From an uncultured Planctomycetota bacterium (GTDB taxonomy: Bacteria > Planctomycetota > Planctomycetia > Isosphaerales > Isosphaeraceae): a stretch of 64,000 nt of DNA. Below the pieces are notes generated by a model, which had not been told where the DNA came from, did not search any database, and was given only the letters and a program-made list of their open reading frames with translations. The translations under genes and the position numbers were made by a program. The stretch is from NCBI GenBank assembly GCA_963845755.1, contig CAWJTV010000011.1, positions 960,001 through 1,024,000 on the forward strand. Reading direction: 5' to 3'. Shown here one piece after another: positions 16,375 through 27,375 of the stretch. How positions within the stretch are numbered: the first letter of the stretch is position 1; the number at the start of each line of letters is the position of its first letter.

Positions 16375-19300
16375 ATGGCGAGGGGATCGACCAAAAGCGC
16401 TCTCCGACAGATCCGGACGCTCTTCGAGCTGGGCACGCTCGGCGGGTTGACCGATGGCCAGTTGCTGGAGTTGTTCCTGACGCGGTCAGGGGACGACGCC
16501 GAGGATGCGTTCGCGGCGCTGGTCCATCGGCACGGTCCGATGGTCCTGGGCGTCTGCCGCAGGATGCTGCCCGGCTCGCACGACGCGGAGGACGCATTCC
16601 AGGCGACCTTCCTGATCCTCGCACGGCGGGCCGCCGCGATCGGCCGGCGGGAGCGGTTGGCGAACTGGCTCTATGGCGTCGCAGTCCGGACGGCGAAGGA
16701 GTCGCGGCGTCGGGCGGCGCGGCAGCAGGCGCGGGAAAGGCGGGCGATGGACAGGAACAAGGTCGAGTCGGAGCGGGCCGGAGATTGGGACGACGTGATC
16801 CCGATCCTCGACGAGGAATTGAGCCGTCTGCCGGATCGATACCGAGCCGCGCTGGTGGCCTGTGAGCTGGAGGGCAAGTCGCGTCACGACGCCGCCCAGC
16901 AACTCGGACTTCCCGAGGGGACGCTCTCGACTCACCTGGCGCGCGGCCGGAAGCTGCTGCGCGATCGACTCGTCCAGCGCGGGGTGAGCCTCGGGGTCGG
17001 GGCCTGGGCGGGACTGCCGCGCGGCGCCGCCGAGGCCGCGGTCCCGGACCGGCTGCTCACCTCCACAGTTCATACGGCGCTCGGTCACGCGTCCGGCGGA
17101 GTGGCATCGGGAATGGTTTCGGTAACAGTCACGGCCTTGGCCGAAGGAGTGCTCAAAATGATGATCCTGACCCGGTTGGCTCTGCTGGTTGCGGCTGTCC
17201 TGGGATTCGGCGCGGCGGGCCTGGGCGCGTATGTCGCCTGGGCGGCAGTGCCGTCGCCAAGGGACGAGCCGTCCGGGGCCCCGGTCGCCGTCAAGGCGGA
17301 GGATTCCACGGCCGGCACTCGCCGGGCCCGGGTCCATGGCATCGTCGTCGACGGGGCCGGAGAAGCCGGTTCCCGGGATCACGGTGCGGGTCGCGAACTA
17401 CGACGACCATCAGTCGCGCGGCGTCACGGACCCGTCCGGTCGGTTCGATTTCGCCATCCGGAGCCCTCTGCTCAGAGACACGATGCTTCTCGCCGGCACG
17501 GCCGACCAGTCGCGGCAGGGGTTCTACGCGTACGACTTCTCCGTTGAGGAGACCGAGACGAAACAGCCCGTCACCATCGTGCTCAAACCGAGCCGGGACG
17601 TGGTTGTCCGCGTGACCGACCCGGCGAAATCGCCCGTACCCGGCGCCGCGGTCGAAGCCGTGGCGTCTTTTCGGACCATCGCGACGGCAACGGCGAATAA
17701 CCAGGGGACGACCTTGTTGCGCATCCCCGCCGAGGCGCCCGTCCAGTGGATCATGGCCCTGAAATCGGGTCAGGGGATTCGACTACTTCGAGCATGGCAG
17801 CAAGCTGCAAACAGGTGCCCCGAACGAGGACCTTCCGGCGATGGTCACCCTCGTCCTCGACCGCGCGCGGACCGCCCGCATCCAGGCGGTGGATAGCGCG
17901 GGCAAGCCGCTCGCGGGGATTGGCTTCGTACCGTGGTATTTCCAGAAGCCCGGCAAGCGCGGGGATGCCAACATCGCGGGGGGCGAGATCGTGCAGGTCG
18001 TGACCGACGAGCGCGGGATCGCGACCTTCGACTGGCTGCCGGCGACGACTTCACCCGTCGTCTTCTTCCCACGCACGGAGGGTTACCATGCCCCGTTGCG
18101 GACGATGCTGGAGAAAGGAGCGGCGGACACCACCCTCACCGCGCGATTGCTGCGGATGGAGACGATCCGGGGCCGGGTGATCGGGGCTGACGGGAAGCCC
18201 GCCGCGGGGATCCTGGTCGTGGCGCAGGGGTGCGGACCGGGCTCCGACAACGGCAGCAGCCGGGCTCGAACCGCGGCCGATGGGTCCTACGAGATGACCG
18301 TCAACTCGGACGAGTCGTATGTCGTGACCGTCTCCGACGACGACTGGGCGGCGCCGGGCCACATCGGGGTCATCGTGCCGCGAGGGCCGGCCTGTCGCGG
18401 GGCTCGACTTCCGCCTCGAACGCGGAACCCTGATCCACGGGACCGTGACCATCGGCTCGAAGGGGAGGCCGGCGGAACGACGGAGTCTCTGGCTCCATCA
18501 GAGCGGGGGCGAGCTTCCCAAGGAGTTGCGGGGGAACGACCGGATCTATCATGAAGTGCGGATGGACCGCTATGCGACGACCGACGCGAACGGACGATAC
18601 CGGATCCGGGTCGGGCCCGGGACCTATGGCTTGGGCATCTCGGGTCAGATCGCGCAAGAGACCGTCACAATCAAGAATGAGCCGGAGCTGATCCACGATT
18701 TCCGCATGCCGAGGCTGGAGCGCGGGCCGATTTCCGGGCGGGTCGTCGTCGCCGGGGAGCCCAACCGGGGCATGGCCGGAGCGAAGATCGACGGTGTGAT
18801 CGCCGAGCCACTCGGGGGTCTCGACCTGATCATGGTCGCCGATGCCGAGGGCCGGTTCCGCGCCGAGCGCGAGCTCAAGAAGATGGTCGTCCATGCCAGG
18901 AGTCCCGATGGGTCACTCGGCGGCATCGTCGAGATCAGCGGTGATGATACCGAGATCGAGATCCCGGTCGGACCGACGGCGATCGCGTCGGGGATCATCC
19001 TCGACAAGCACGGCGACCCGATGGCCAACGCATTGCTCAGTTGGGGTCGCCGCGTTCATGCGGGTGACGAGAATGCACCGTTCCGGGACAGCTTCGGCCC
19101 GAAGGTGGTGACGGATGAGGAGGGTCAGTTTGTGCTCCCGGAGCTGGTCGTGGGCCAGGAGTATCGAATCAGCGTTCCTACGGGGAACGATACCTGGAGC
19201 CAGGTCGGCACGGTCTTACCCAGCGAAGCCGTGCACATCGACCTCGGGACACTCCAGGTCGATGCGAACGGCGGGAAACGGGATGCCTCGTCGTTCCGCG

Positions 19301-19768
19301 ACGGCGGGCCGGATGCGGGCGACCTGGCCCCTGGTTTCGATGCGGGTGGACGTTCTCACGGTGCGCGGACCCTCGATGGCCGTCCGCTCAAATTGGCGGA
19401 CTTCCGCGGCAAGTTCGTCCTGCTGGATTTCTGGGCGAGCTGGTGCGGGCCATGTATTTCCGAGATCCCTCAACTCCAGGCGGTCCATGAAGCCTTCGGC
19501 CGGGATTCGCGGTTTGTCATGCTCAGCCTGAGCGTCGACGAGAGGATCGAACGCGCCTCGGCAATTTCAGGAGAAGCGAAAGCTCCCCTGGATGCAGGGT
19601 TTCCTCGGTATGGGCATTCAGGGCGCGATCCCGGACCGCTATGGTGTCCAGGCGATCCCGGCCTTGGTCCTGATCGGCCCCGACGGCAAGATCGTGGCCA
19701 AGGGGATGCGGGCGGAGATCCGGAAAGAGGTCGCCCGCGCCCTATCGGGAAGTCGGAAGGCTGAATAA
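16375..19768 (+). CDS. ECF sigma-70 factor with TM, carboxypeptidase-regulatory-like repeats and a C-terminal TlpA/redoxin domain (frameshifted)
   Basis: GLTDGQLLE...AFAALVHRHGPMVLGVC...DAEDAFQATFL; LDEELSRLPDRYR; LADFRGKFVLLDFWASWCGPC...YGVQAIPALVLIGPDGKIV. Confidence 0.85.
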
Positions 19769-20211: not shown

Positions 20212-21033
20212 CTAGACCAGCGTGATGAGCACGACCTCGGGGCGGCAGAGGAAGCGGATGGGCGGTGTCACGGTGCCGACGCCCCGAGTGATGAAGACCT
20301 GGGCACACGGGCCTTGAACGAGTCCGTGGAGGTATTTCTGCCCGTACCGCGAGGGGACGACCGGGGCACCGAAGCCGGGCACGATCACCTGGCCACCGTG
20401 GGTATGGCCACTCAGGACCAGCCCAACACGAGGGTCTCGGAGGGTCTCGACAAAGTCCGGGTTGTGCGACAGGAGGAGGACGGCGTCGTCCAGGGTCGCG
20501 TCGCCCATCGCGGCGGGGAGGTCTTGCGAATCCGTCCAGAGATCGCCGACGCCGCAGACCCGCAGCCGGGTCCCGCGGCGCTCGAGCCAGACGCCCCGGT
20601 TATTCAGGTCGGGCAGGTTCGCCTCAGCCAGCGCGGACCGGCTGATGGACGTGAATTCCCGGTTGTCGTGGTTGCCCCGCACTGCGAACCGTCCCAGGGG
20701 AGCTGTCAGCTTGCCCAGCTCGGCAATTCCCGGCTCGATGAAGTCGGCGGAACGGTGCATATAGTCCCCGGCCAGCAGGACCATGTCGGGCCGCAGCGAA
20801 TTGGTCAGCGCGACGACATGCCGGACGTATTCCAGCGGGACGAACGGCCCGTGGTGCACGTCGGCCAGCAGAGCGACGGTCGTCCCCCGGAAGGGTCCAG
20901 GGAGGTTCGGCAGCGCGATCGTTTGCCGCACCACCCCGCACCACCTGGCCTCCAGGAAGGGATAGATCCCGCCAGCCACCGCGCCGCCCGCCGCCACCAG
21001 GCCCACCCGCTTCAGGAACTTGCGTCGATCCAT
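20212..21033 (-). CDS. Tat-exported metallophosphoesterase (YkuE-like)
   Basis: MDRRKFLK; DVHHG, GDY, GNHD, LLSHNPD, SGHTHGGQ. Confidence 0.9.
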   Translation of the reverse strand: MDRRKFLKRVGLVAAGGAVAGGIYPFLEARWCGVVRQTIALPNLPGPFRGTTVALLADVHHGPFVPLEYVRHVVALTNSLRPDMVLLAGDYMHRSADFIEPGIAELGKLTAPLGRFAVRGNHDNREFTSISRSALAEANLPDLNNRGVWLERRGTRLRVCGVGDLWTDSQDLPAAMGDATLDDAVLLLSHNPDFVETLRDPRVGLVLSGHTHGGQVIVPGFGAPVVPSRYGQKYLHGLVQGPCAQVFITRGVGTVTPPIRFLCRPEVVLITLV

Positions 21034-21385
21034 CGATTCCTCCCCGATTCCGGTCGCCCGAAAACACCACGCGCATCGTGTTGGCGTTAGCATGCTGGAA
21101 TTCCATCGAAAAGGCCACCGCAAACGCGACAGGTTCGTGACGCTTCGCGGATCCTCGGGACGATGCATCGCTCTGGAGATGATTGACGCCCCGATGATCT
21201 TACTCTACGATACGCGCTTCCACGATCGAGGTGAAGTAAGTTCGCTTCGGGAAACAGGGTTACGCTCGGTGGTCTGGCGAATCAACCCAGGCGGGTGGCA
21301 CGCATCGTGGTGGTTCGATCATCTCTCTTGCAGCGATTGAAGGGGTAGCTCCCCGAGTCGGACGACCGCACCTGGAGCACTCACG

Positions 21386-22810
21386 ATGGCCGACCGTCCG
21401 TACATCTTCTTCGAACTGACTAATAGCTTGTGCTCGACCTGCCTGCGCAAGGTCGAGGCGAAGGTGATCTTCCAGGAGGGGCGCGTCTACCTGGTCAAGC
21501 ACTGCCCCGAGCACAAGCAGGAAAAAGTCCTGATCTCGACGGACGTCGATTACTACCAGTTCTCGCGGCGTGCGCTCAAGCCGGGCACGATGCCGCGGAA
21601 GTTCAACACGGCGATCGAGCGCGGTTGTCCCTACGACTGTGGGCTCTGTCCCGACCACGAGCAGCACAGTTGCCTGGCGCTGGTCGAGATCACCGACCAC
21701 TGCAACCTGACCTGCCCGATCTGCTACGCCGAGAGTTCGCCGCGTCGCCCGTTGCATCGGTCGCTGGAGCAGATCGCGTTCATGCTCGACTGCGTCGTGC
21801 GGAACGAGGGTCGGCCGGACATCGTGCAGATCTCTGGCGGCGAGCCGACGATCCATCCCGAGTTCTTCGAGGTGCTCGACCTCGCCCGGCAGCGGCCGAT
21901 CAAGCACCTGATGGTCAACACCAACGGCGTGCGCATCGCCCAGGACGCCGAGTTCGTCCGGCGTCTCGGAGCGTACAAGCCGGGCTTCGAGGTGTACCTC
22001 CAGTTCGACTCGCTCGACGCGGTGCCCCAGCAGGCGTTGCGCGGCGCGGACCTGGTCGAGGTCCGCACCCGGGCGCTCGAGCACCTCAACAAGCACGGGA
22101 TCTCGACCACGCTGGTCGTCACGCTCAAGAAAGGGCTCAACGACGACCAGGTCGGCGCGATCATCGATTTCGCGCTGGAGCAGCCGTGCGTCCGCGGGGT
22201 GACGTTCCAGCCGGTGCAGGCCGCCGGACGGATCGAGGGGTTCGACCCGGCGCGCGACCGCTTGACGCTGGGCGAGGTCCGCGCGAGAATCCTCGAACAA
22301 TCGTCCCACTTCCAGCCCAGCGACATCGTGCCGGTCCCTTGCCATCCCGACTGCCTGGCCATGGCCTATGCACTGAAGCTCGGCGGCAAGGTTGTCCCCC
22401 TGACCCAGCTCCTGGACCCCACGACGCTCCTGGAGATGCAGGGCAACACGATCCTCAACGAGCAGGATCCCGAGATGCGCCGGCTCGTCCTCGAATTGTT
22501 CTCGACGTCACACTCGCCCGACTCGTCGGCCTGGACGCTGCGCCAGCTCCTCTGCTGCCTGCCGGAGCTGTCCGTGCCGCAGCAGCTCACCTATGACAAG
22601 ATCTTTCGCGTGTTGATCGTGCAGTTCCTCGACCCGTATAACTTCGACGTCCGCTCGGTGAAGAAGTCGTGCATCCACATCGTCCACCCGGACGGCCGGA
22701 TCATCCCATTTGACACGTATAATTTATTCTATCGCGACACGGTCGCCGCGCGGATGCCCGCGATGCCCTGGAATCAGAGTCTGCCGATCCTGGTCGGAGG
22801 GGTGTCATGA
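21386..22810 (+). CDS. radical SAM enzyme of the Tes/GDGT-MAS (MJ0619) family, bacterial type
   Basis: N-terminal CSTC...CPEH, GCPYDCGLCPDH, RS motif CNLTCPIC, SGGEPT, C-terminal PCHPDC...KKSCIH...IPFDTYN. Confidence 0.85.
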   Translation: MADRPYIFFELTNSLCSTCLRKVEAKVIFQEGRVYLVKHCPEHKQEKVLISTDVDYYQFSRRALKPGTMPRKFNTAIERGCPYDCGLCPDHEQHSCLALVEITDHCNLTCPICYAESSPRRPLHRSLEQIAFMLDCVVRNEGRPDIVQISGGEPTIHPEFFEVLDLARQRPIKHLMVNTNGVRIAQDAEFVRRLGAYKPGFEVYLQFDSLDAVPQQALRGADLVEVRTRALEHLNKHGISTTLVVTLKKGLNDDQVGAIIDFALEQPCVRGVTFQPVQAAGRIEGFDPARDRLTLGEVRARILEQSSHFQPSDIVPVPCHPDCLAMAYALKLGGKVVPLTQLLDPTTLLEMQGNTILNEQDPEMRRLVLELFSTSHSPDSSAWTLRQLLCCLPELSVPQQLTYDKIFRVLIVQFLDPYNFDVRSVKKSCIHIVHPDGRIIPFDTYNLFYRDTVAARMPAMPWNQSLPILVGGVS

Positions 22811-23124
22811 GCGATGCCCCCCTTGCGCCGGATTGCCGACACTGTGGCGCGGTGAACGACTCCGGTGCCTCGGAATGCTGGCAGTGCCACCGACGGGACT
22901 GGCGGGGCTCCCAAGGCCCCGTCGAGGAATCCCCGGTCTTGGCCTCCGTTCGAGGCGCAGGGGTCGTTGACGGGCGGCCTGGTCCTGATCATCACGATCC
23001 TCTGCGCGGTCGTCGGCCTGGCCTTCCGGGCCAGCCCGTACCTCGGCGCGTGGTCCTGCTCCCGACTCTTGTGATCCTTGCCCTGGCGGTCGCCCTGTTC
23101 ACGATCTGCATGGCATTCGGCTGA
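22807..23124 (+). CDS. zinc-ribbon membrane protein, paralog 1 (two compensating frameshifts in the middle)
   Basis: ATGA overlap with the rSAM stop; CRHCGAVN...ECWQCHRRDW; TM segment GLVLIITILCAVVGLAF in the alternate frame; ends LALAVALFTICMAFG. Confidence 0.75.
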   Translation: MSDAPLAPDCRHCGAVNDSGASECWQCHRRDWRGSQGPVEESPVLASVRGAGVVDGRPGPDHHDPLRGRRPGLPGQPVPRRVVLLPTLVILALAVALFTICMAFG

Positions 23125-23134
23125 GGCCACCCCG

Positions 23135-23845
23135 ATGAGCACCATTCCCGCATCGCTCCCATCCGACGCATCGCCACTTCCCGGAAGCGAAGACCGCCCG
23201 TGGTACATCGTCGGCCGCTGGCAGGAATACCAGGGCGAGGCGCGGGCGAACCTGCTGCGGCTGGTGGCCGTCGCCGCGTTCTACGTCATCGAGCTGATCA
23301 ATTATTACGGCGTCGATCTGGGCTTCATCCAGCTCCCGAAAGTCAGCGACCTGGCGTTTCACAAGACCGTCACGGCGATCGCCGCGGCCTGGGTCTTGCT
23401 CGGCGTGGGAGTCCACTTCTGGCTGCGACTTCACCTCATGCCCGAGGCGCTGAAGTACGTCTCCACGAGTCTGGACGTCGTGCTCTTGACCCTCCTCCTG
23501 ATGGTCTCCGATGGGCCAAGGAGCCCGATCATCGCTGCCTATTTCCTGATCCCTGCCCTGGCCTGCCTGCGGTTCCAGCTCCGCTTGGTCTGGTTCGCGA
23601 CGATCGCCGCGATGCTCGGCTACGTCTGGCTGCTGGGTTGGGCGGTCTGGATCGAGAGCGTTCGGAACGTCCGCGTGCCGCGATACCACGAGCTGATCTT
23701 CCTGACGGCGCTGGCGATGAGCGGGATCATCCAGGGCCAGGTGATCCGCCGGGTGAAAGCGCTGGCCGCCGAGTATGCGCGCCGCCTGGCCTCCACCGGG
23801 GAGCCAGCTCGACCTGAGTCGAGCCCGGTTGGAGGAACCTCATGA
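23135..23845 (+). CDS. polytopic membrane protein of unknown function (about 5-6 TM)
   Basis: multiple hydrophobic segments; operonic spacing (10 bp gap upstream, ATGA overlap downstream). Confidence 0.8.
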   Translation: MSTIPASLPSDASPLPGSEDRPWYIVGRWQEYQGEARANLLRLVAVAAFYVIELINYYGVDLGFIQLPKVSDLAFHKTVTAIAAAWVLLGVGVHFWLRLHLMPEALKYVSTSLDVVLLTLLLMVSDGPRSPIIAAYFLIPALACLRFQLRLVWFATIAAMLGYVWLLGWAVWIESVRNVRVPRYHELIFLTALAMSGIIQGQVIRRVKALAAEYARRLASTGEPARPESSPVGGTS

Positions 23846-24201
23846 GCCGGATCGAACCCCGACCGAAACCGGAACCAAAGGGGAGTTGCTGGGACTGCGG
23901 CGCGACCAATTGGGCCGATGCCCGGGGTTGCTGGCTCTGCCACCGCCGCGATTGGAAGTCGGGCGCGATCGCGGCCTCCGTAGGACGCACGGCGGCTGAC
24001 GACGAGCCGACCCCAAAATCGAGAGATCGGGCCGATAAGGCCGCCAGGGTGAGCTCGATCGCATCCACGGTGCTCATCTCTCTAGCCGCGTTTGTCTTTG
24101 TGACGGTCGTCCTACCACTCATGGTCATCGGTTTTGTGACCGTCGCCCTGGTCATCGCCCTGAATCAGTTCTGCTCGGCCCTCACGGCTCACCCGCCTTG
24201 A
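23842..24201 (+). CDS. zinc-ribbon membrane protein, paralog 2
   Basis: GGAGG RBS; CWDCGATN...GCWLCHRRDW; ends VALVIALNQFCSALTAHPP. Confidence 0.8.
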   Translation: MSRIEPRPKPEPKGSCWDCGATNWADARGCWLCHRRDWKSGAIAASVGRTAADDEPTPKSRDRADKAARVSSIASTVLISLAAFVFVTVVLPLMVIGFVTVALVIALNQFCSALTAHPP

Positions 24202-24287
24202 TGGCCGGGCTGGGGAGGGCCCGCTTGGCTTCATCCGGAGACCACGAAGACAGCCCGGATCCCTGGTTTGCAGCAACTGAGGTTCCC

Positions 24288-24740
24288 ATGAGTTCCGAGA
24301 AACCGCCGGCTTCCCTGAGATGCTTCGACTGCGGCGCGGAGAACGACCCCGGCGCCTCGGAATGCTGGCTCTGCCATCGGCGGGACTGGCGAGAGGGCTC
24401 CGCGGGCGCCGAGCCGAAGTCCCTCGACTACGCGCCAGATCATCGAACAGCTCCATCGCGAGCGACTCGTGTCGATGACCGGCCGGATTGGTGTGGTCGC
24501 GCTCGGACTAGTGCTGCTCGCAACTCTCGCGGTTGCGCCGGACTGGCCATCGGGCTGGGGATCTTGGCGGTGCTGATCGCCCTCCCGGTCTGGGGTGCCG
24601 GGACGATTACCAAAGGGATGTCGCCGCTGGCCCGATTCTTCGTGACCTTGGTGCTAAGCCTCGTATTCTTAATCCTGCTGGTCGTGGCGCTCTACATCGC
24701 CCTTTATCTCATCTGCATCGCGATGGGCCTGATCGATTAG
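24288..24740 (+). CDS. zinc-ribbon membrane protein, paralog 3 (probable compensating frameshifts)
   Basis: GAGG RBS; CFDCGAEN...ECWLCHRRDW; ends VALYIALYLICIAMGLID. Confidence 0.8.
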   Translation: MSSEKPPASLRCFDCGAENDPGASECWLCHRRDWREGSAGAEPKSLDYAPDHRTAPSRATRVDDRPDWCGRARTSAARNSRGCAGLAIGLGILAVLIALPVWGAGTITKGMSPLARFFVTLVLSLVFLILLVVALYIALYLICIAMGLID

Positions 24741-24835
24741 AATGGAGCTCGAGAGGCCCCGGGATCACGGGACGAGTTTGACCCTGAGGGATGCCGGCGT
24801 CGGGAAGCGATCCGAAGCGAGAAAGAGTTTCCGCC

Positions 24836-25273
24836 ATGAGCGCCGGGATACCCCAACCGGAACTCCCCTGCTGGCACTGCGGTGCGTGGAACCACCGCGG
24901 CTCGTCGGAGTGCTGGCTGTGCCAGCGCCGGGATTGGAACAAGTCGCCCTTGCTCCCACCGAGGACGGCCGCCCGGTCGCCGCGCGGGCCGCTCTCGACC
25001 ATCGCGGGCCACATGATCTTGATCGCGCTGATCGCCGTGTTCCTGGTCATCTTCATCGCGGCGCCGCCCCTGGCTATCGCCTTGCTGGTTTGTGCCCTGC
25101 CGGCCTGGGCGATCGTCGAGATGAAAGCACGCCGCCGCCGTCGCCGAGGTGACTCGATGTCCGGCATCGAGAGAGCCCTGTGGATCGTCGGTCTGACGAT
25201 CGGGATCCCTATCGTGTTGGCAGTAGCTCTGGCCATCGCCTTGTTCACGTTCTGCGCCTTCATGCAGCGGTAG
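24836..25273 (+). CDS. zinc-ribbon membrane protein, paralog 4
   Basis: CWHCGAWN...ECWLCQRRDW; 3 TM segments; ends VALAIALFTFCAFMQR. Confidence 0.8.
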   Translation: MSAGIPQPELPCWHCGAWNHRGSSECWLCQRRDWNKSPLLPPRTAARSPRGPLSTIAGHMILIALIAVFLVIFIAAPPLAIALLVCALPAWAIVEMKARRRRRRGDSMSGIERALWIVGLTIGIPIVLAVALAIALFTFCAFMQR

Positions 25274-25290
25274 ACGGAGATGAGACACCG

Positions 25291-25996
25291 ATGATCAACC
25301 CGCCGCCTACCCCTGGCCTGGCCTACACCGGGATCATGATCCTGTCGATCGCGACGGCAGTGATCTTGAAGCGCCGGGGCGACCGATCGTTGCCACTGTC
25401 GGCCGCGCAACGGTGGGGGATCGCGCTGGGGGCTTTCTGCGGCGCGATGATCGGCTCGAAGATTCCGTTCGTGCTGGCCGACTGGGAGGGCCTCATCAGC
25501 GGCCGGGCCTGGTTCGACAACGGCAAGACGATCCTGTTCGGCCTGGTCGGGGGTTATTTTGGCGTCGAGCTGGCCAAGGCAATTCTGGGCGTGACGGTCA
25601 AGACGGGGGACAGCTTCGCGGTGCCGGTAGCGGCGGCGGTGGCCGTGGGCCGGCTGGCCTGCTTCGTCGGAGGCTGCTGCTTCGGCAAGCCGACGAGTCT
25701 CCCCTGGGGCGTCGTGTTCCACGATGGCATCCCTCGCCACCCGACGCAGCTCTACGAAGCGGCGTTCCACGCCTCGGCCGCAGTGTTCCTGGCCTGGACC
25801 GAACGCCGGGGACTGTTCCGACTCCAGCGGATCAAGCTCTATTTGATCGCCTACTTGATCTATCGCTTCTTCACCGAGTTCATCCGCCCTGAGCCGGTCA
25901 TCGCCCTGAGCCTGACAGCCTATCAGTGGGGGGCACTGGCCTTGCTCCCGGTTTTCGCCTGGCTCTGGCGGCGCGACGCGGCGCCGCGCTCACTAG
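25291..25996 (+). CDS. prolipoprotein diacylglyceryl transferase (Lgt)-like protein, non-canonical; 3' end approximate
   Basis: VGRLACFVGGCCFGKPTSLPWG, RHPTQLYE, YLIYRFFTEFIR. The track ORF runs on to 26508 through an antisense gene; one indel would stop it at TAG 25994-25996. Confidence 0.85.
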
Positions 25997-26394
25997 AGTT
26001 CGAGGATTTGCTCGCCGCCGTGCGCGGGATTGCCGGCCAGCGAGTGAGATTCCCAGTCCACGACGAGGTCGAGTCGCAGAAGTGGCAGCCGACCGATGAG
26101 GACCGGTGTGCCATCGGGGACTTCCACAACGTCCATCGTGCAGTCTCGCCCCTGGATGGTGAGCCGCACGGGGTCGTACATGGCGGCTTTCTGGTTCTGC
26201 GCCTCCAGTCCGAGCCGATGAATGACACAGGACGGAAGCGCGATCAGCTTCGTACTGGAATCCACCAGCGCGTTGGGAACCCTCACGCGCCGGACATGGT
26301 CGGCGGAGATCAATCCGCGCTCGGCGTCCCAGAGGTCCTTCAAACTCTCGATCGTCGCTTCCGTGAAAACACGCCCCATCGTTTCGGCCTCCAT
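25993..26394 (-). CDS. clan AA (retropepsin-like) aspartic protease homolog with a degenerate active site
   Basis: AAGGAGG RBS; ALVDSST in place of DTGA; VLIGRLPL...LDLVVD. Confidence 0.7.
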   Translation of the reverse strand: MEAETMGRVFTEATIESLKDLWDAERGLISADHVRRVRVPNALVDSSTKLIALPSCVIHRLGLEAQNQKAAMYDPVRLTIQGRDCTMDVVEVPDGTPVLIGRLPLLRLDLVVDWESHSLAGNPAHGGEQILEL

Positions 26395-26616
26395 GGACTT
26401 CGCCTCCTTCGATATCAGGCATTCGGACGATCTGGCCCTATGACCATCGTGCTCCAAATTTCACCGAAAGACCAGTCAAGTCCGCGAGATCGGCGAACTG
26501 CGACGTGAGGTGCAATCCCGGCCCGCCGGTTGACTCGGATCGGTTCACCCCGTTACGATCGGCGGAGACAAACCGCGTAAAGATGAAGCCCGTAACCCGA
26601 GATGGTAAGTCGAGCG

Positions 26617-27375
26617 ATGCAGATCCTTTTGACAAACGATGATGGTGTTTTTGCCCCCGGCTTGCGTGCGTTGCGCAAGGAGCTGATGCGGCTGGGGGAA
26701 GTGACCGTAGTGGCCCCGGCGATGGAGCAGAGCGGCGTGGCGCACTCGATCACGCTGCTCGAGCCCTTGGTGGTCAAGAAGGTCGAGGATGTCAACGGCA
26801 CGACCCTGGGCTGGAAGGTCGAGGGGAGCCCGGCCGACAGCGTCAAACTGGGGATCTGCGAGTTGATGGCGCGCCCCCCGGACCTGATCGTCTCGGGGAT
26901 CAATTCGGGGTCCAACGCTGGGATCAACGTGCTGTACTCCGGCACGGTCGCCGCGGCGATCGAGGGGGCTTTTTTCAAGATCACGAGCATCGCGATCTCG
27001 CTGGAGCTCTCCGAGCACTTCGATTTCCCCCACGCGGCGCGGCACGCCGTGCGGGTGATCGAGAAGATCCTGGCCAATCGGCCGCCGAACGGCTCGCTGT
27101 TCAACGTCAATCTGCCGGCCCACTCGCGCGGCGAGCCCCGGGGCATCCGCGTCGTCCCCATGGGGCTGGGCCGCTACGGTGAAGGCTTCGAGCGCCGGCA
27201 GGACCCCCGCGGTCGCACTTACTACTGGATGACCTACAACCCGCCCTATCACCTCGAAGGACCCGAGACCGACGTCACCAGCCTCTGCGAAGGTTACATC
27301 ACCGTCACCCCACTCCATTTCGATCTGACCCTCCACGATCGGATCGACGAGATCGGTCGATGGAAGTGGGATTAG
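26617..27375 (+). CDS. surE: 5'/3'-nucleotidase SurE
   Basis: ILLTNDDG, VVAP..EQSG, GSPADSV, SGINSGSN, YSGTVAAAIEG. Confidence 0.96.
   Translation: MQILLTNDDGVFAPGLRALRKELMRLGEVTVVAPAMEQSGVAHSITLLEPLVVKKVEDVNGTTLGWKVEGSPADSVKLGICELMARPPDLIVSGINSGSNAGINVLYSGTVAAAIEGAFFKITSIAISLELSEHFDFPHAARHAVRVIEKILANRPPNGSLFNVNLPAHSRGEPRGIRVVPMGLGRYGEGFERRQDPRGRTYYWMTYNPPYHLEGPETDVTSLCEGYITVTPLHFDLTLHDRIDEIGRWKWD

Follow-up and report, generated by a model that had tools for sequence, protein, structure and literature searches.

An Isosphaeraceae operon as a local form of a widespread three-part bacterial membrane module: a radical SAM enzyme, an Lgt paralogue and small Cys-ended membrane proteins

The prolipoprotein diacylglyceryl transferase Lgt of E. 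coli (PDB 5AZB, 5AZC; Pfam PF01790) and the radical S-adenosylmethionine (SAM) enzyme GDGT-MAS, or Tes (M. jannaschii MJ0619; PDB 7TOL, 7TOM; NCBIfam NF045702), are the described systems closest to the genes considered here. For E. coli Lgt, catalytic roles have been described for R143, E202, Y235, R239, E243 and R246, the active site lies slightly below the membrane surface, and the HGGL motif, in which the His is critical in E. coli, has been proposed as the site of the lipobox peptide (Mao 2016, PMC4728403). The lipobox follows the consensus [LVI][ASTVI][GAS]C (PMC12462473). GDGT-MAS carries a rubredoxin-type CX2C...CX2H site, an N-terminal cluster (CX3CX2C plus His), the radical SAM (RS) motif CX3CX2C and a C-terminal cluster (Lloyd 2022, PMC9433317), the last forming a sulfur-carbon intermediate with the lipid (PMC9433317). 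Since 2022, hundreds of Tes homologs from bacteria have been proposed, as yet without a test, to synthesize branched tetraether lipids (PMC8941075). Relatives of both enzymes are encoded together in a 64,000-nucleotide stretch of contig CAWJTV010000011.1 from an uncultured planctomycete of the Isosphaeraceae (the whole stretch that was analysed is hereafter called the window). As read from the translated open reading frames (ORFs), positions 21386-25992 of the window form a single co-oriented operon of seven genes, in which four small paralogous membrane proteins with a Cys near the C-terminal end (P1 to P4) and one polytopic membrane protein are encoded between the two enzyme genes. This operon is a local, Isosphaeraceae-specific rearrangement of a widespread uncharacterised three-part membrane module, the product of which is probably a lipid-modified membrane protein of a new type.

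Relatives of the radical SAM enzyme were collected by scanning one genome per species. At least 556 stretches encode such a relative, and the best 80 loci, with 60-94% identity, were kept for comparison. According to the titles of their records, these 80 loci span at least 10 phyla, including Planctomycetota, Bacillota, Cyanobacteriota, Acidobacteriota, Verrucomicrobiota, Bacteroidota/Chlorobi-type groups, Omnitrophota, Gemmatimonadota, Myxococcota and Pseudomonadota. Of the 80 loci, 74 have an Lgt-like gene next to that for the radical SAM enzyme. In 65 of these it lies directly upstream in the same orientation, in 4 it abuts the radical SAM gene, in 1 it is upstream and divergent, and in 4 it is downstream. 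The order of the window, with the radical SAM gene first and the Lgt-like gene last, was found only in 4 loci of the Isosphaeraceae type. Among the six loci without an adjoining Lgt-like gene, three are cut at the expected site; in the other three, the flanking DNA is free of such a gene for at least 6 kb in both directions, and the genomes concerned carry an Lgt-like gene on another contig (304-366 bits, versus 45-73 bits for the canonical Lgt copies). With the three cut loci set aside, the two enzymes thus co-occur in 77 of 77 evaluable genomes, and the survey of neighbourhoods that a preliminary description of the window had proposed has turned up the pair as a conserved unit. No fusion of the two genes was detected in the 74 loci with both, the stop codon of one abutting the start of the next in three of them. 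Around the enzyme pair, no further gene family recurs broadly in the 80 loci, and genes for Lsp and Lnt are not among the recurrent neighbours. As possible further parts of the module, AraC, a sigma-54 activator, ROK, DivIC, GGDEF, an ABC ATPase and HMA were considered and rejected, each being present in only 4-12 loci and not lipid-related.

In Acidobacteriota, the association with an Lgt-like gene was seen for this family and not for true Tes. A sample of 151 Acidobacteriota genomes was analysed, 93 of them with any match, including two unpublished genomes (G027 and G052). True Tes, with 456-619 bits and thus above the cut-off, was detected in 28 of the 151 genomes, and lower-scoring classes in many. 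An Lgt-like gene was located within 1.5 kb at 0 of the 28 true-Tes loci, which cover 28 of the 30 above-cut-off matches (two gave no locus), versus 3 of 3 loci of family members in the same test (L123 left out). Unlike the radical SAM family of the window, which is always paired with an Lgt-like gene, the true Tes of Acidobacteriota is unpaired. Many Acidobacteriota also possess a third Tes-like class, with 305-346 bits on the Tes model and open frames of about 640-860 aa, which is without an Lgt-like neighbour in the two loci examined (L090:1303-3381 and L124:541-2550); one genome, G001, holds three different Tes-like genes.

The third part of the module consists of small membrane proteins, encoded at most loci in 1-6 tandem copies, either right after the radical SAM gene or between the enzyme genes. 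By BLAST grouping, which is independent of the Cys, they fall into apparently unrelated families, one of Bacillota (...ITFLLNAACFG...), one of Tepidisphaerales (...LIFFGxC...), one of other Planctomycetota (...LTCLLPxGxxxxLCG) and the zinc-ribbon family of the window. The Cys is in register in 36 of the 40 members grouped in this way (18/18, 5/7, 6/7 and 7/8 by family). A strict motif was applied, defined by at least 2 K/R, then 14 strongly hydrophobic residues and then a Cys that lies 1-20 residues before the end. It was detected in 79 of 1214 co-oriented ORFs near the cassette (52 loci), versus 6 of 1282 antisense and 10 of 5515 distant ORFs; 3 of the 79 appear to be spurious on visual inspection. 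A profile built from the last 55 residues, the terminal domain, is circular in part for the positives and not for the controls. Its matches comprised 77 of 1211 co-oriented neighbours and 1 of 5514 distant ORFs, with none among the 1278 antisense ORFs; the one distant match looks like a true member just outside the neighbour zone. Motif and profile together place small Cys proteins in 61 of the 80 loci and almost nowhere else in the DNA fetched, so that the near-terminal Cys of the window does recur beside the enzyme pair in homologous loci. A lack of co-occurrence and of a terminal Cys in such loci, by which the proposal of the preliminary description would have been refuted, was not observed. 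The 19 loci not covered comprise 4 that are cut downstream of the radical SAM gene, 2 without an Lgt-like gene, 5 ambiguous ones and about 8 with none. Cys-less members of the terminal-helix families are encoded at L007:10214-10690, L019:2795-3151, L024:2650-3354 and L058:3609-3977; except for that of L058, they adjoin a Cys-bearing paralog.

When the small proteins are aligned on the Cys, K/R residues peak at -25 to -20, small residues are located at about -19 to -15 and -11 to -9, the stretch from -8 to -3 is hydrophobic, 73% of the residues at -2 are G/A/S, and positions +1 and +2 are small. The tail past the Cys is 1-15 residues long (median 7) and holds a mean of 0.45 K/R, versus 2.6 K/R before the helix, an asymmetry that arises in part by construction. 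The only feature common to the small proteins is this signal-anchor-like last helix, in which a basic cluster is followed by some 20 hydrophobic residues; a small residue occupies -2, and a short tail follows the Cys. It resembles a lipobox signal peptide in its basic stretch, its length of about 20 hydrophobic residues and the small residues near the invariant Cys, and the Cys is located at the end of the hydrophobic helix, one helix-length from the basic cluster, like the lipobox Cys to which it had been compared in the preliminary description. Unlike lipobox precursors, the small proteins have the Cys helix last and not first, and the small residue at -2 followed by a hydrophobic -1. Since only 1-15 residues follow the Cys, they also lack a mature domain to anchor, unlike lipoprotein precursors. 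For eight small proteins, each from a different locus, no match reached or came close to any cut-off in Pfam or NCBIfam. In low-GC Bacillota the small proteins are gene calls of RefSeq, annotated as 'hypothetical protein' in 8 of 8 cluster members, and the Paenibacillus trio stands in public records as 'radical SAM protein', 'prolipoprotein diacylglyceryl transferase (family protein)' and 'hypothetical protein'. A trio of a culturable member, Paenibacillus chitinolyticus, is located at L052:7207-9829.

The Lgt paralogue of the window (25291-25992, + strand; conserved core of 234 aa) is a member of the Pfam LGT family (PF01790, 93.7 bits; cut-off 24.9) and lies below the equivalog cut-offs (TIGR00544, 39.5 versus 118.9 bits; NF000778, 85 versus 334 bits). 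It represents a third copy, as the genome also holds two canonical Lgt genes (204-206 bits on PF01790), and it matches the genome's canonical Lgt with an hhalign probability of 99.4. An AlphaFold2 model based on 59 homologs has seven long helices at a predicted local distance difference test (pLDDT) value of 86.4. In a Foldseek search with this model, the sole match at E<=0.001 was E. coli Lgt (5AZB; E 7e-5, TM 0.58); a phmmer search of the core against the PDB sequences gave nothing at E<=0.01. The link to 5AZB is thus made by the fold search together with the canonical paralogue, and residues were mapped to E. coli Lgt by way of the genome's canonical Lgt. By this mapping, R143 (R121 in the paralogue), D129 (D107), Y235 (Y188) and R239 (R192) are kept in 59 of 59 Lgt-like homologs. 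At the position of E202 (E156) there is E in 52 and D in 7, at that of E243 (E196) E in 33 and D in 26, and at that of R246 (position 199) K in 55 and R in 4. N146 is replaced by Cys in 58 of the 59, and the paralogue lacks the periplasmic head-domain insert, a segment of about 20 residues that precedes the RHP motif in canonical Lgt. The paralogue is thus an Lgt homolog with the catalytic network of the E. coli enzyme retained and both the His of HGGL and the head-domain insert lost.

Judging from the charged loops and the positive-inside rule, the conserved residues of the paralogue are predicted to lie at the outer side of the membrane, which is also their place in the E. coli enzyme. The two proteins have in common the seven-helix fold, the catalytic residues and the predicted orientation; unlike E. 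coli Lgt, the paralogue lacks the HGGL His and the head-domain insert, carries Cys for N146, stays below the equivalog cut-offs, and has its presumed acceptor Cys at the C-terminal end of a protein and not after an N-terminal signal peptide. This pattern suggests that the transfer machinery has been kept and the acceptor site changed. A complex prediction for the Lgt-like core with the last 55 residues of P4, performed without controls, gave a score of 0.00 in both runs and a pLDDT below 50 for the partner, and counts neither way. Unlike the genome's two canonical copies, the paralogue retains the R and the E of the RHPSQLYE motif; the canonical copies (L001:1447-2331 and L002, on other contigs) have IHPTQLYS and VHPTQLYS, with changes at the R195/E202 positions. 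In the closest relative (L004:11141-11843), whose radical SAM enzyme is 94% identical, the match to the Lgt-like gene is split into two parts that lie in different frames, indicating a frameshift or an indel error in a long-contig metagenome-assembled genome.

The radical SAM enzyme (21386-22810, + strand; 474 aa) belongs to the Tes/GDGT-MAS superfamily, in which it represents an Lgt-associated clade. It matches the Pfam families Radical_SAM (80.8 bits) and Zn_ribbon_HMPTM, the Tes-type zinc-ribbon/rubredoxin domain (59.6 bits), and aligns with GDGT-MAS (PDB 7TOL) at E 5.5e-70 across residues 11-462, indicating full-length homology with the same domain order. The enzyme is single-copy in the 14.3-Mb genome and is without a signal peptide or membrane segment. 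As in GDGT-MAS, the rubredoxin-type site (C16, C19, C40 and H43), the N-terminal cluster (C81, C85, C88 and H91) and the radical SAM motif (C106, C110 and C113) are kept, each being invariant in 78 of 78 family sequences. Near the C-terminal cluster, the invariant Cys residues C319, C390, C391 and C429 are specific to the family. The score on the Tes model NF045702 is 293.3 bits, in two stretches, versus a cut-off of 450; family members elsewhere score 208-264 bits on this model, and true Tes 456-619 bits. The best-scoring NCBIfam model is that of the radical SAM (seleno)protein TrsS (NF045646), named in a table row of PMC13188914, for which the enzyme also fails the cut-off (329 versus 490 bits). 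In a FastTree analysis of 112 sequences, run without archaeal Tes or TrsS, the family (81 sequences, of which 3 duplicate included loci) split off with a support of 0.997, the branch being 1.03 substitutions per site long. The enzyme, first described as Tes-like, is therefore not Tes in the proper sense: it stays below the cut-off, falls into a clade of its own and apparently differs in the ligands of the C-terminal cluster, with Ser/Asp swaps and its own C319, C390 and C391. Unlike the host of GDGT-MAS/Tes, the hosts of the family have bacterial ester lipids.

As for the substrate, the enzyme contains no RRE/PqqD-like or SPASM/twitch domain, only Radical_SAM and Zn_ribbon_HMPTM being detected by Pfam. 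NCBIfam models of SPASM-type maturases match its core only (about residues 96-300), with 28-55 bits, far below their cut-offs. Between phyla the radical SAM enzyme is 60-70% identical, versus 30-39% for the Lgt-like protein, and there is hardly any sequence similarity among the small proteins. Since its conservation is far above that of its partners, a lipid substrate fits better than a peptide substrate. This conservation, the lack of a peptide-recognition domain and the build of a lipid-tail enzyme together argue that the enzyme probably acts on lipid tails. Bacterial fatty-acyl tails are the substrate of the membrane-spanning lipid synthase Mss, a radical SAM enzyme of Thermotoga and Thermoanaerobacter (Sahonero-Canavesi 2022, PMC13159169), which shows that tail-to-tail coupling occurs in bacteria (PMC13159169). 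Mss is only remotely related to Tes by description, and the portion of that source covered here mentions neither an Lgt-like partner nor a Cys-protein partner (PMC13159169).

Based on the features of the three parts, a reaction scheme can be proposed, in which the Lgt paralogue would lipidate an outer-face Cys and the radical SAM enzyme would remodel the lipid tails, more likely on the donor; taken as a whole, this scheme falls appreciably short of an even chance. The last helix of the small proteins would insert with the N-terminal end inside and the C-terminal end outside, following the positive-inside rule. From its homology, the Lgt paralogue, with the active site at the outer leaflet, would transfer glyceride from a phospholipid onto the Cys as a thioether. 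The radical SAM enzyme, again from homology, would perform Tes-type radical chemistry on the lipid tails, more probably on the donor phospholipid, prior to its transfer, than on the completed conjugate. As this enzyme is cytoplasmic, the donor lipid before transfer is easier to picture as its substrate than a conjugate in the outer leaflet. In the source genome, the acceptors would carry a cytoplasmic zinc-ribbon, and the PilS-like membrane protein would have joined the module. For one step of the scheme, S-lipidation of the Cys by the paralogue from a glycerophospholipid, the chance comes close to even, because the last helix is like a lipoprotein signal peptide placed at the C-terminal end and the transfer machinery appears to be kept.

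A number of observations weigh against this scheme. The HGGL His (E. coli H103; position 82 of the paralogue) is replaced by V in 54, L in 4 and I in 1 of the 59 homologs, His being present in none, while the GGL is kept. Position -1 of the small proteins is mostly hydrophobic (68%; G/A/S 20%), unlike the G/A/S of the lipobox, and the motif statistics are partly circular, since 75 of the 85 rows of the alignment were chosen for a Cys and at least 2 K/R. Among the BLAST-grouped members, 4 of 40 are without a Cys in register. About 8 loci with full flanks (L033, L035, L040, L043, L047, L064, L065 and L081) are without a small Cys protein, so that the small proteins may not be obligatory. Near the C-terminal cluster of the radical SAM enzyme, two Cys residues of GDGT-MAS align to Ser and Asp; together with the family's own invariant C319, C390 and C391, these replacements indicate that the chemistry may differ from tail coupling. 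The topology of P2 and P3 is ambiguous by eye, both having long hydrophobic stretches, and an even number of helices would place their Cys in the cytoplasm. Finally, with a cytoplasmic radical SAM enzyme and a Cys that is predicted in the outer leaflet, the two enzymes could not touch one and the same conjugate without an extra step.

Some of these observations would be accounted for if the enzyme pair acted on free membrane lipids only, such as by producing or trimming a glycerolipid with modified tails, the small proteins being scaffolds, regulators or adaptors with a Cys that is not lipidated. The two enzymes form the invariant core, present in all 77 evaluable genomes; small Cys proteins were not found in the 8 or so full-flank loci, nor beside the three unlinked Lgt-like genes; the Cys is out of register or absent in 4 of 40 family members; and the substrates of GDGT-MAS are free phospholipids (PMC9433317). 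We nevertheless regard this, the main rival of the scheme, as rather unlikely. A plain scaffold is not expected to occur in 1-6 fast-diverging tandem copies with only the helix and the Cys conserved, the acceptor in every known Lgt reaction is a protein Cys and the catalytic network is kept, and both the depth and the side predicted for the Cys match the Lgt active site. The preliminary description had proposed the opposite order of events to that preferred here, with diacylglycerol transferred onto the Cys first and the attached tails then coupled by the radical SAM enzyme to give a membrane-spanning anchor. This order shares the linkage and motif evidence of the scheme above, and one GDGT-MAS active site does yield both macrocyclic and membrane-spanning products (PMC9433317). 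It is nevertheless improbable: the conjugate would be in the outer leaflet and the radical SAM enzyme needs cytoplasmic SAM and reductant, an awkward topology, and the C-terminal cluster, the carrier of the lipid intermediate in GDGT-MAS, apparently has different ligands here. In addition, of 14 acidobacteria producing iso-diabolic acid, only 3 were reported to possess Tes homologs (PMC13159169), so that Tes-like genes there do not track membrane-spanning lipids. A protein-bolalipid, for which the Tes-like enzyme would weld the tails into a macrocyclic or membrane-spanning lipid that the Lgt paralogue would then link to the terminal Cys as a thioether, is likewise unlikely, if slightly less so; it would mean archaeal-type tetraether chemistry in ordinary bacteria of many phyla, stapling small proteins across or into the membrane.

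The small proteins could also be substrates of the radical SAM enzyme in the manner of ribosomally synthesized and post-translationally modified peptides (RiPPs), with a thioether or another link made at the Cys, perhaps to a lipid tail, and with the Lgt-like protein supplying or holding the lipid. Tandem fast-diverging copies with a conserved Cys do resemble RiPP precursors, the chemistry of GDGT-MAS runs through a carbon-sulfur bond (PMC9433317), and the family has extra invariant Cys residues near the C-terminal cluster of the radical SAM enzyme. Against this stand the lack of any RiPP recognition element (RRE) or SPASM domain in Pfam, the contrast between an enzyme 60-70% identical across phyla and small proteins with almost no sequence in common, and the predicted position of the Cys at the far, outer end of the helix; such a role is distinctly improbable. 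Much the least credible explanation is that the small ORFs are chance ORFs of GC-rich DNA in a neighbourhood without function. Spurious ORFs are plentiful in GC-rich genomes, and the codon-position bias of P1 is weak (GC content of 0.70 at the third codon position, GC3, versus 0.77 at the first, GC1). The motif is, however, more than 10-fold enriched over antisense and distant ORFs of the same loci, small proteins are also found in low-GC Bacillota, where RefSeq calls them as genes, the zinc-ribbon ligands are invariant in 12 of 12 members, and the ATGA coupling with GGAGG sites was read directly. The enrichment, the conservation of the zinc ligands and the RefSeq gene calls already contradict this explanation.

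The preferred scheme, with lipid remodelled on the donor and then transferred to the Cys, would, if true, represent a second Lgt-type lipidation route in bacteria of many phyla, distinguished by an acceptor signal at the C-terminal end of the protein. The prediction of lipoproteins would then have to be reconsidered, as would the treatment of Lgt as a drug target with a single pathway, and bacterial Tes homologs would gain a role. A large share of the Tes-like genes found here forms a separate Lgt-linked clade, which is not to be counted as Tes in lipid-biomarker surveys. For the source genome, the finding accounts for four orphan zinc-ribbon membrane proteins and the third Lgt copy. The Lgt link and the Cys proteins are not described in the literature searched, of which unopened supplementary tables could list such genes. 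A 2026 review of lipid-modifying radical SAM enzymes contains 0 occurrences of 'Lgt' or 'lipoprotein' (PMC13459092), and literature naming both prolipoprotein diacylglyceryl transferase and radical SAM consists, by title and among the matches listed, of incidental co-mentions.

In the window, the co-oriented operon with the radical SAM gene first, the Lgt homolog last and four paralogs plus a polytopic membrane protein between them is present as first described. Both ATGA overlaps were read directly as tcATGAgc, one at 22807 (between the radical SAM stop and P1) and the other at 23842 (between the stop of the polytopic membrane protein and P2), and each is preceded by GGAGG. The intervening genes, all on the + strand, are P1 (22807-23124, 105 aa), the PilS-like six-helix membrane protein (23135-23845, 236 aa; ATG at 23135, the ORF opening at TTG 23078), P2 (23842-24201, 119 aa), P3 (24288-24740, 150 aa; ORF opening at 24198) and P4 (24836-25273, 145 aa; ORF opening at 24791). 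The starts of P3 and P4 were set at the Met matching the other paralogs, that of P3 being picked from the paralog alignment. The ATG of the Lgt-like gene is located 17 bases past the P4 stop. The four C-terminal strings are exactly as first quoted, ...LALAVALFTIC-MAFG in P1, ...VALVIALNQFC-SALTAHPP in P2, ...VALYIALYLIC-IAMGLID in P3 and ...VALAIALFTFC-AFMQR in P4, with 4, 8, 7 and 5 residues after the Cys, respectively. GC3 is 0.85-0.90 in the genes for the radical SAM enzyme (0.90), the PilS-like protein, P4 (0.86) and the Lgt core (0.87), and 0.70-0.75 in P1-P3, the weakest being P1; the codon-position GC supports the coding status of the operon genes.

P1-P4 share a CxxC...CWxC zinc-ribbon as a common N-terminal element, which is presumably cytoplasmic; in P1 it is followed by one terminal helix, and P2 was placed in the family by the zinc-ribbon family alignment. 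Among the 12 Isosphaeraceae members of this family (window plus closest relatives), C10, C13, N17, C24, W25 and C27 are invariant in all 12, and the terminal Cys is present in 11. P1 has DUF7577/zinc-ribbon matches below the cut-off in Pfam. The paralogs are confined to the operon, all 4 matches in the 14.3-Mb genome being at this locus, and the copy best kept in relatives is P4, with 43-47% identity to L008 and L009 by tblastn. The PilS-like protein gave a weak Pfam 6TM_PilS match (13.8 bits), and its nearest Atlas clusters are planctomycete PilS-like transmembrane proteins (score 0.97-0.99). Homologs of it are encoded inside the cassette in 6 of the 80 loci, all of Planctomycetota. On a Tepidisphaeraceae contig (L012:161-1615), an Lgt-like protein and a PilS-like six-helix protein are fused in one open frame, with Pfam LGT at residues 4-239 and 6TM_PilS at residues 296-426 (27.9 bits; cut-off 27).

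The end of the operon had been placed at 25996. The conserved Lgt core does extend to 25992; the frame has no stop near 25996 and remains open to 26508, continuing for 172 codons beyond the conserved end (25993-26508, + strand) over a convergent ORF. In relatives the Lgt-like proteins terminate 10-20 codons past the conserved WLW[RH]RD. The extension has a non-coding-like GC3 of 0.64, versus 0.87 in the core, and the antisense ORF one of 0.77. The missing stop and this GC3 point to a stop lost recently or to an assembly error. The convergent ORF (25993-26457, - strand; 154 aa) shows a faint match to clan-AA aspartic proteases (E 0.0085, 16.4 bits; cut-off 57). A promoter scan was uninformative, with 3 promoter-like sites versus 0.9 expected and terminators at chance level, and seven metagenome DNA runs contain only 0.05-0.13 of the sampled words.

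Divergent to the operon, at 20212-21168 on the - strand, lies a gene for a YaeI/LpxG-like metallophosphoesterase with a twin-arginine translocation (TAT) signal, which scores 158 bits on YaeI (cut-off 188) and 109 bits on LpxG (cut-off 350). Counterparts with 70-78% identity lie next to the radical SAM gene at L005, L006, L007 and L009, four loci of the Isosphaeraceae type, and were not found in the loci of other phyla; the gene is a possible lipid-related neighbour. Further upstream, positions 16375-19764 encode an extracytoplasmic function (ECF)-type sigma factor with a long C-terminal extension and two CarboxypepD_reg-domain proteins, the second of which carries a thioredoxin-like/AhpC-TSA domain. 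Downstream of the operon, SurE is encoded at 26602-27375, and the neighbourhood is otherwise ordinary.

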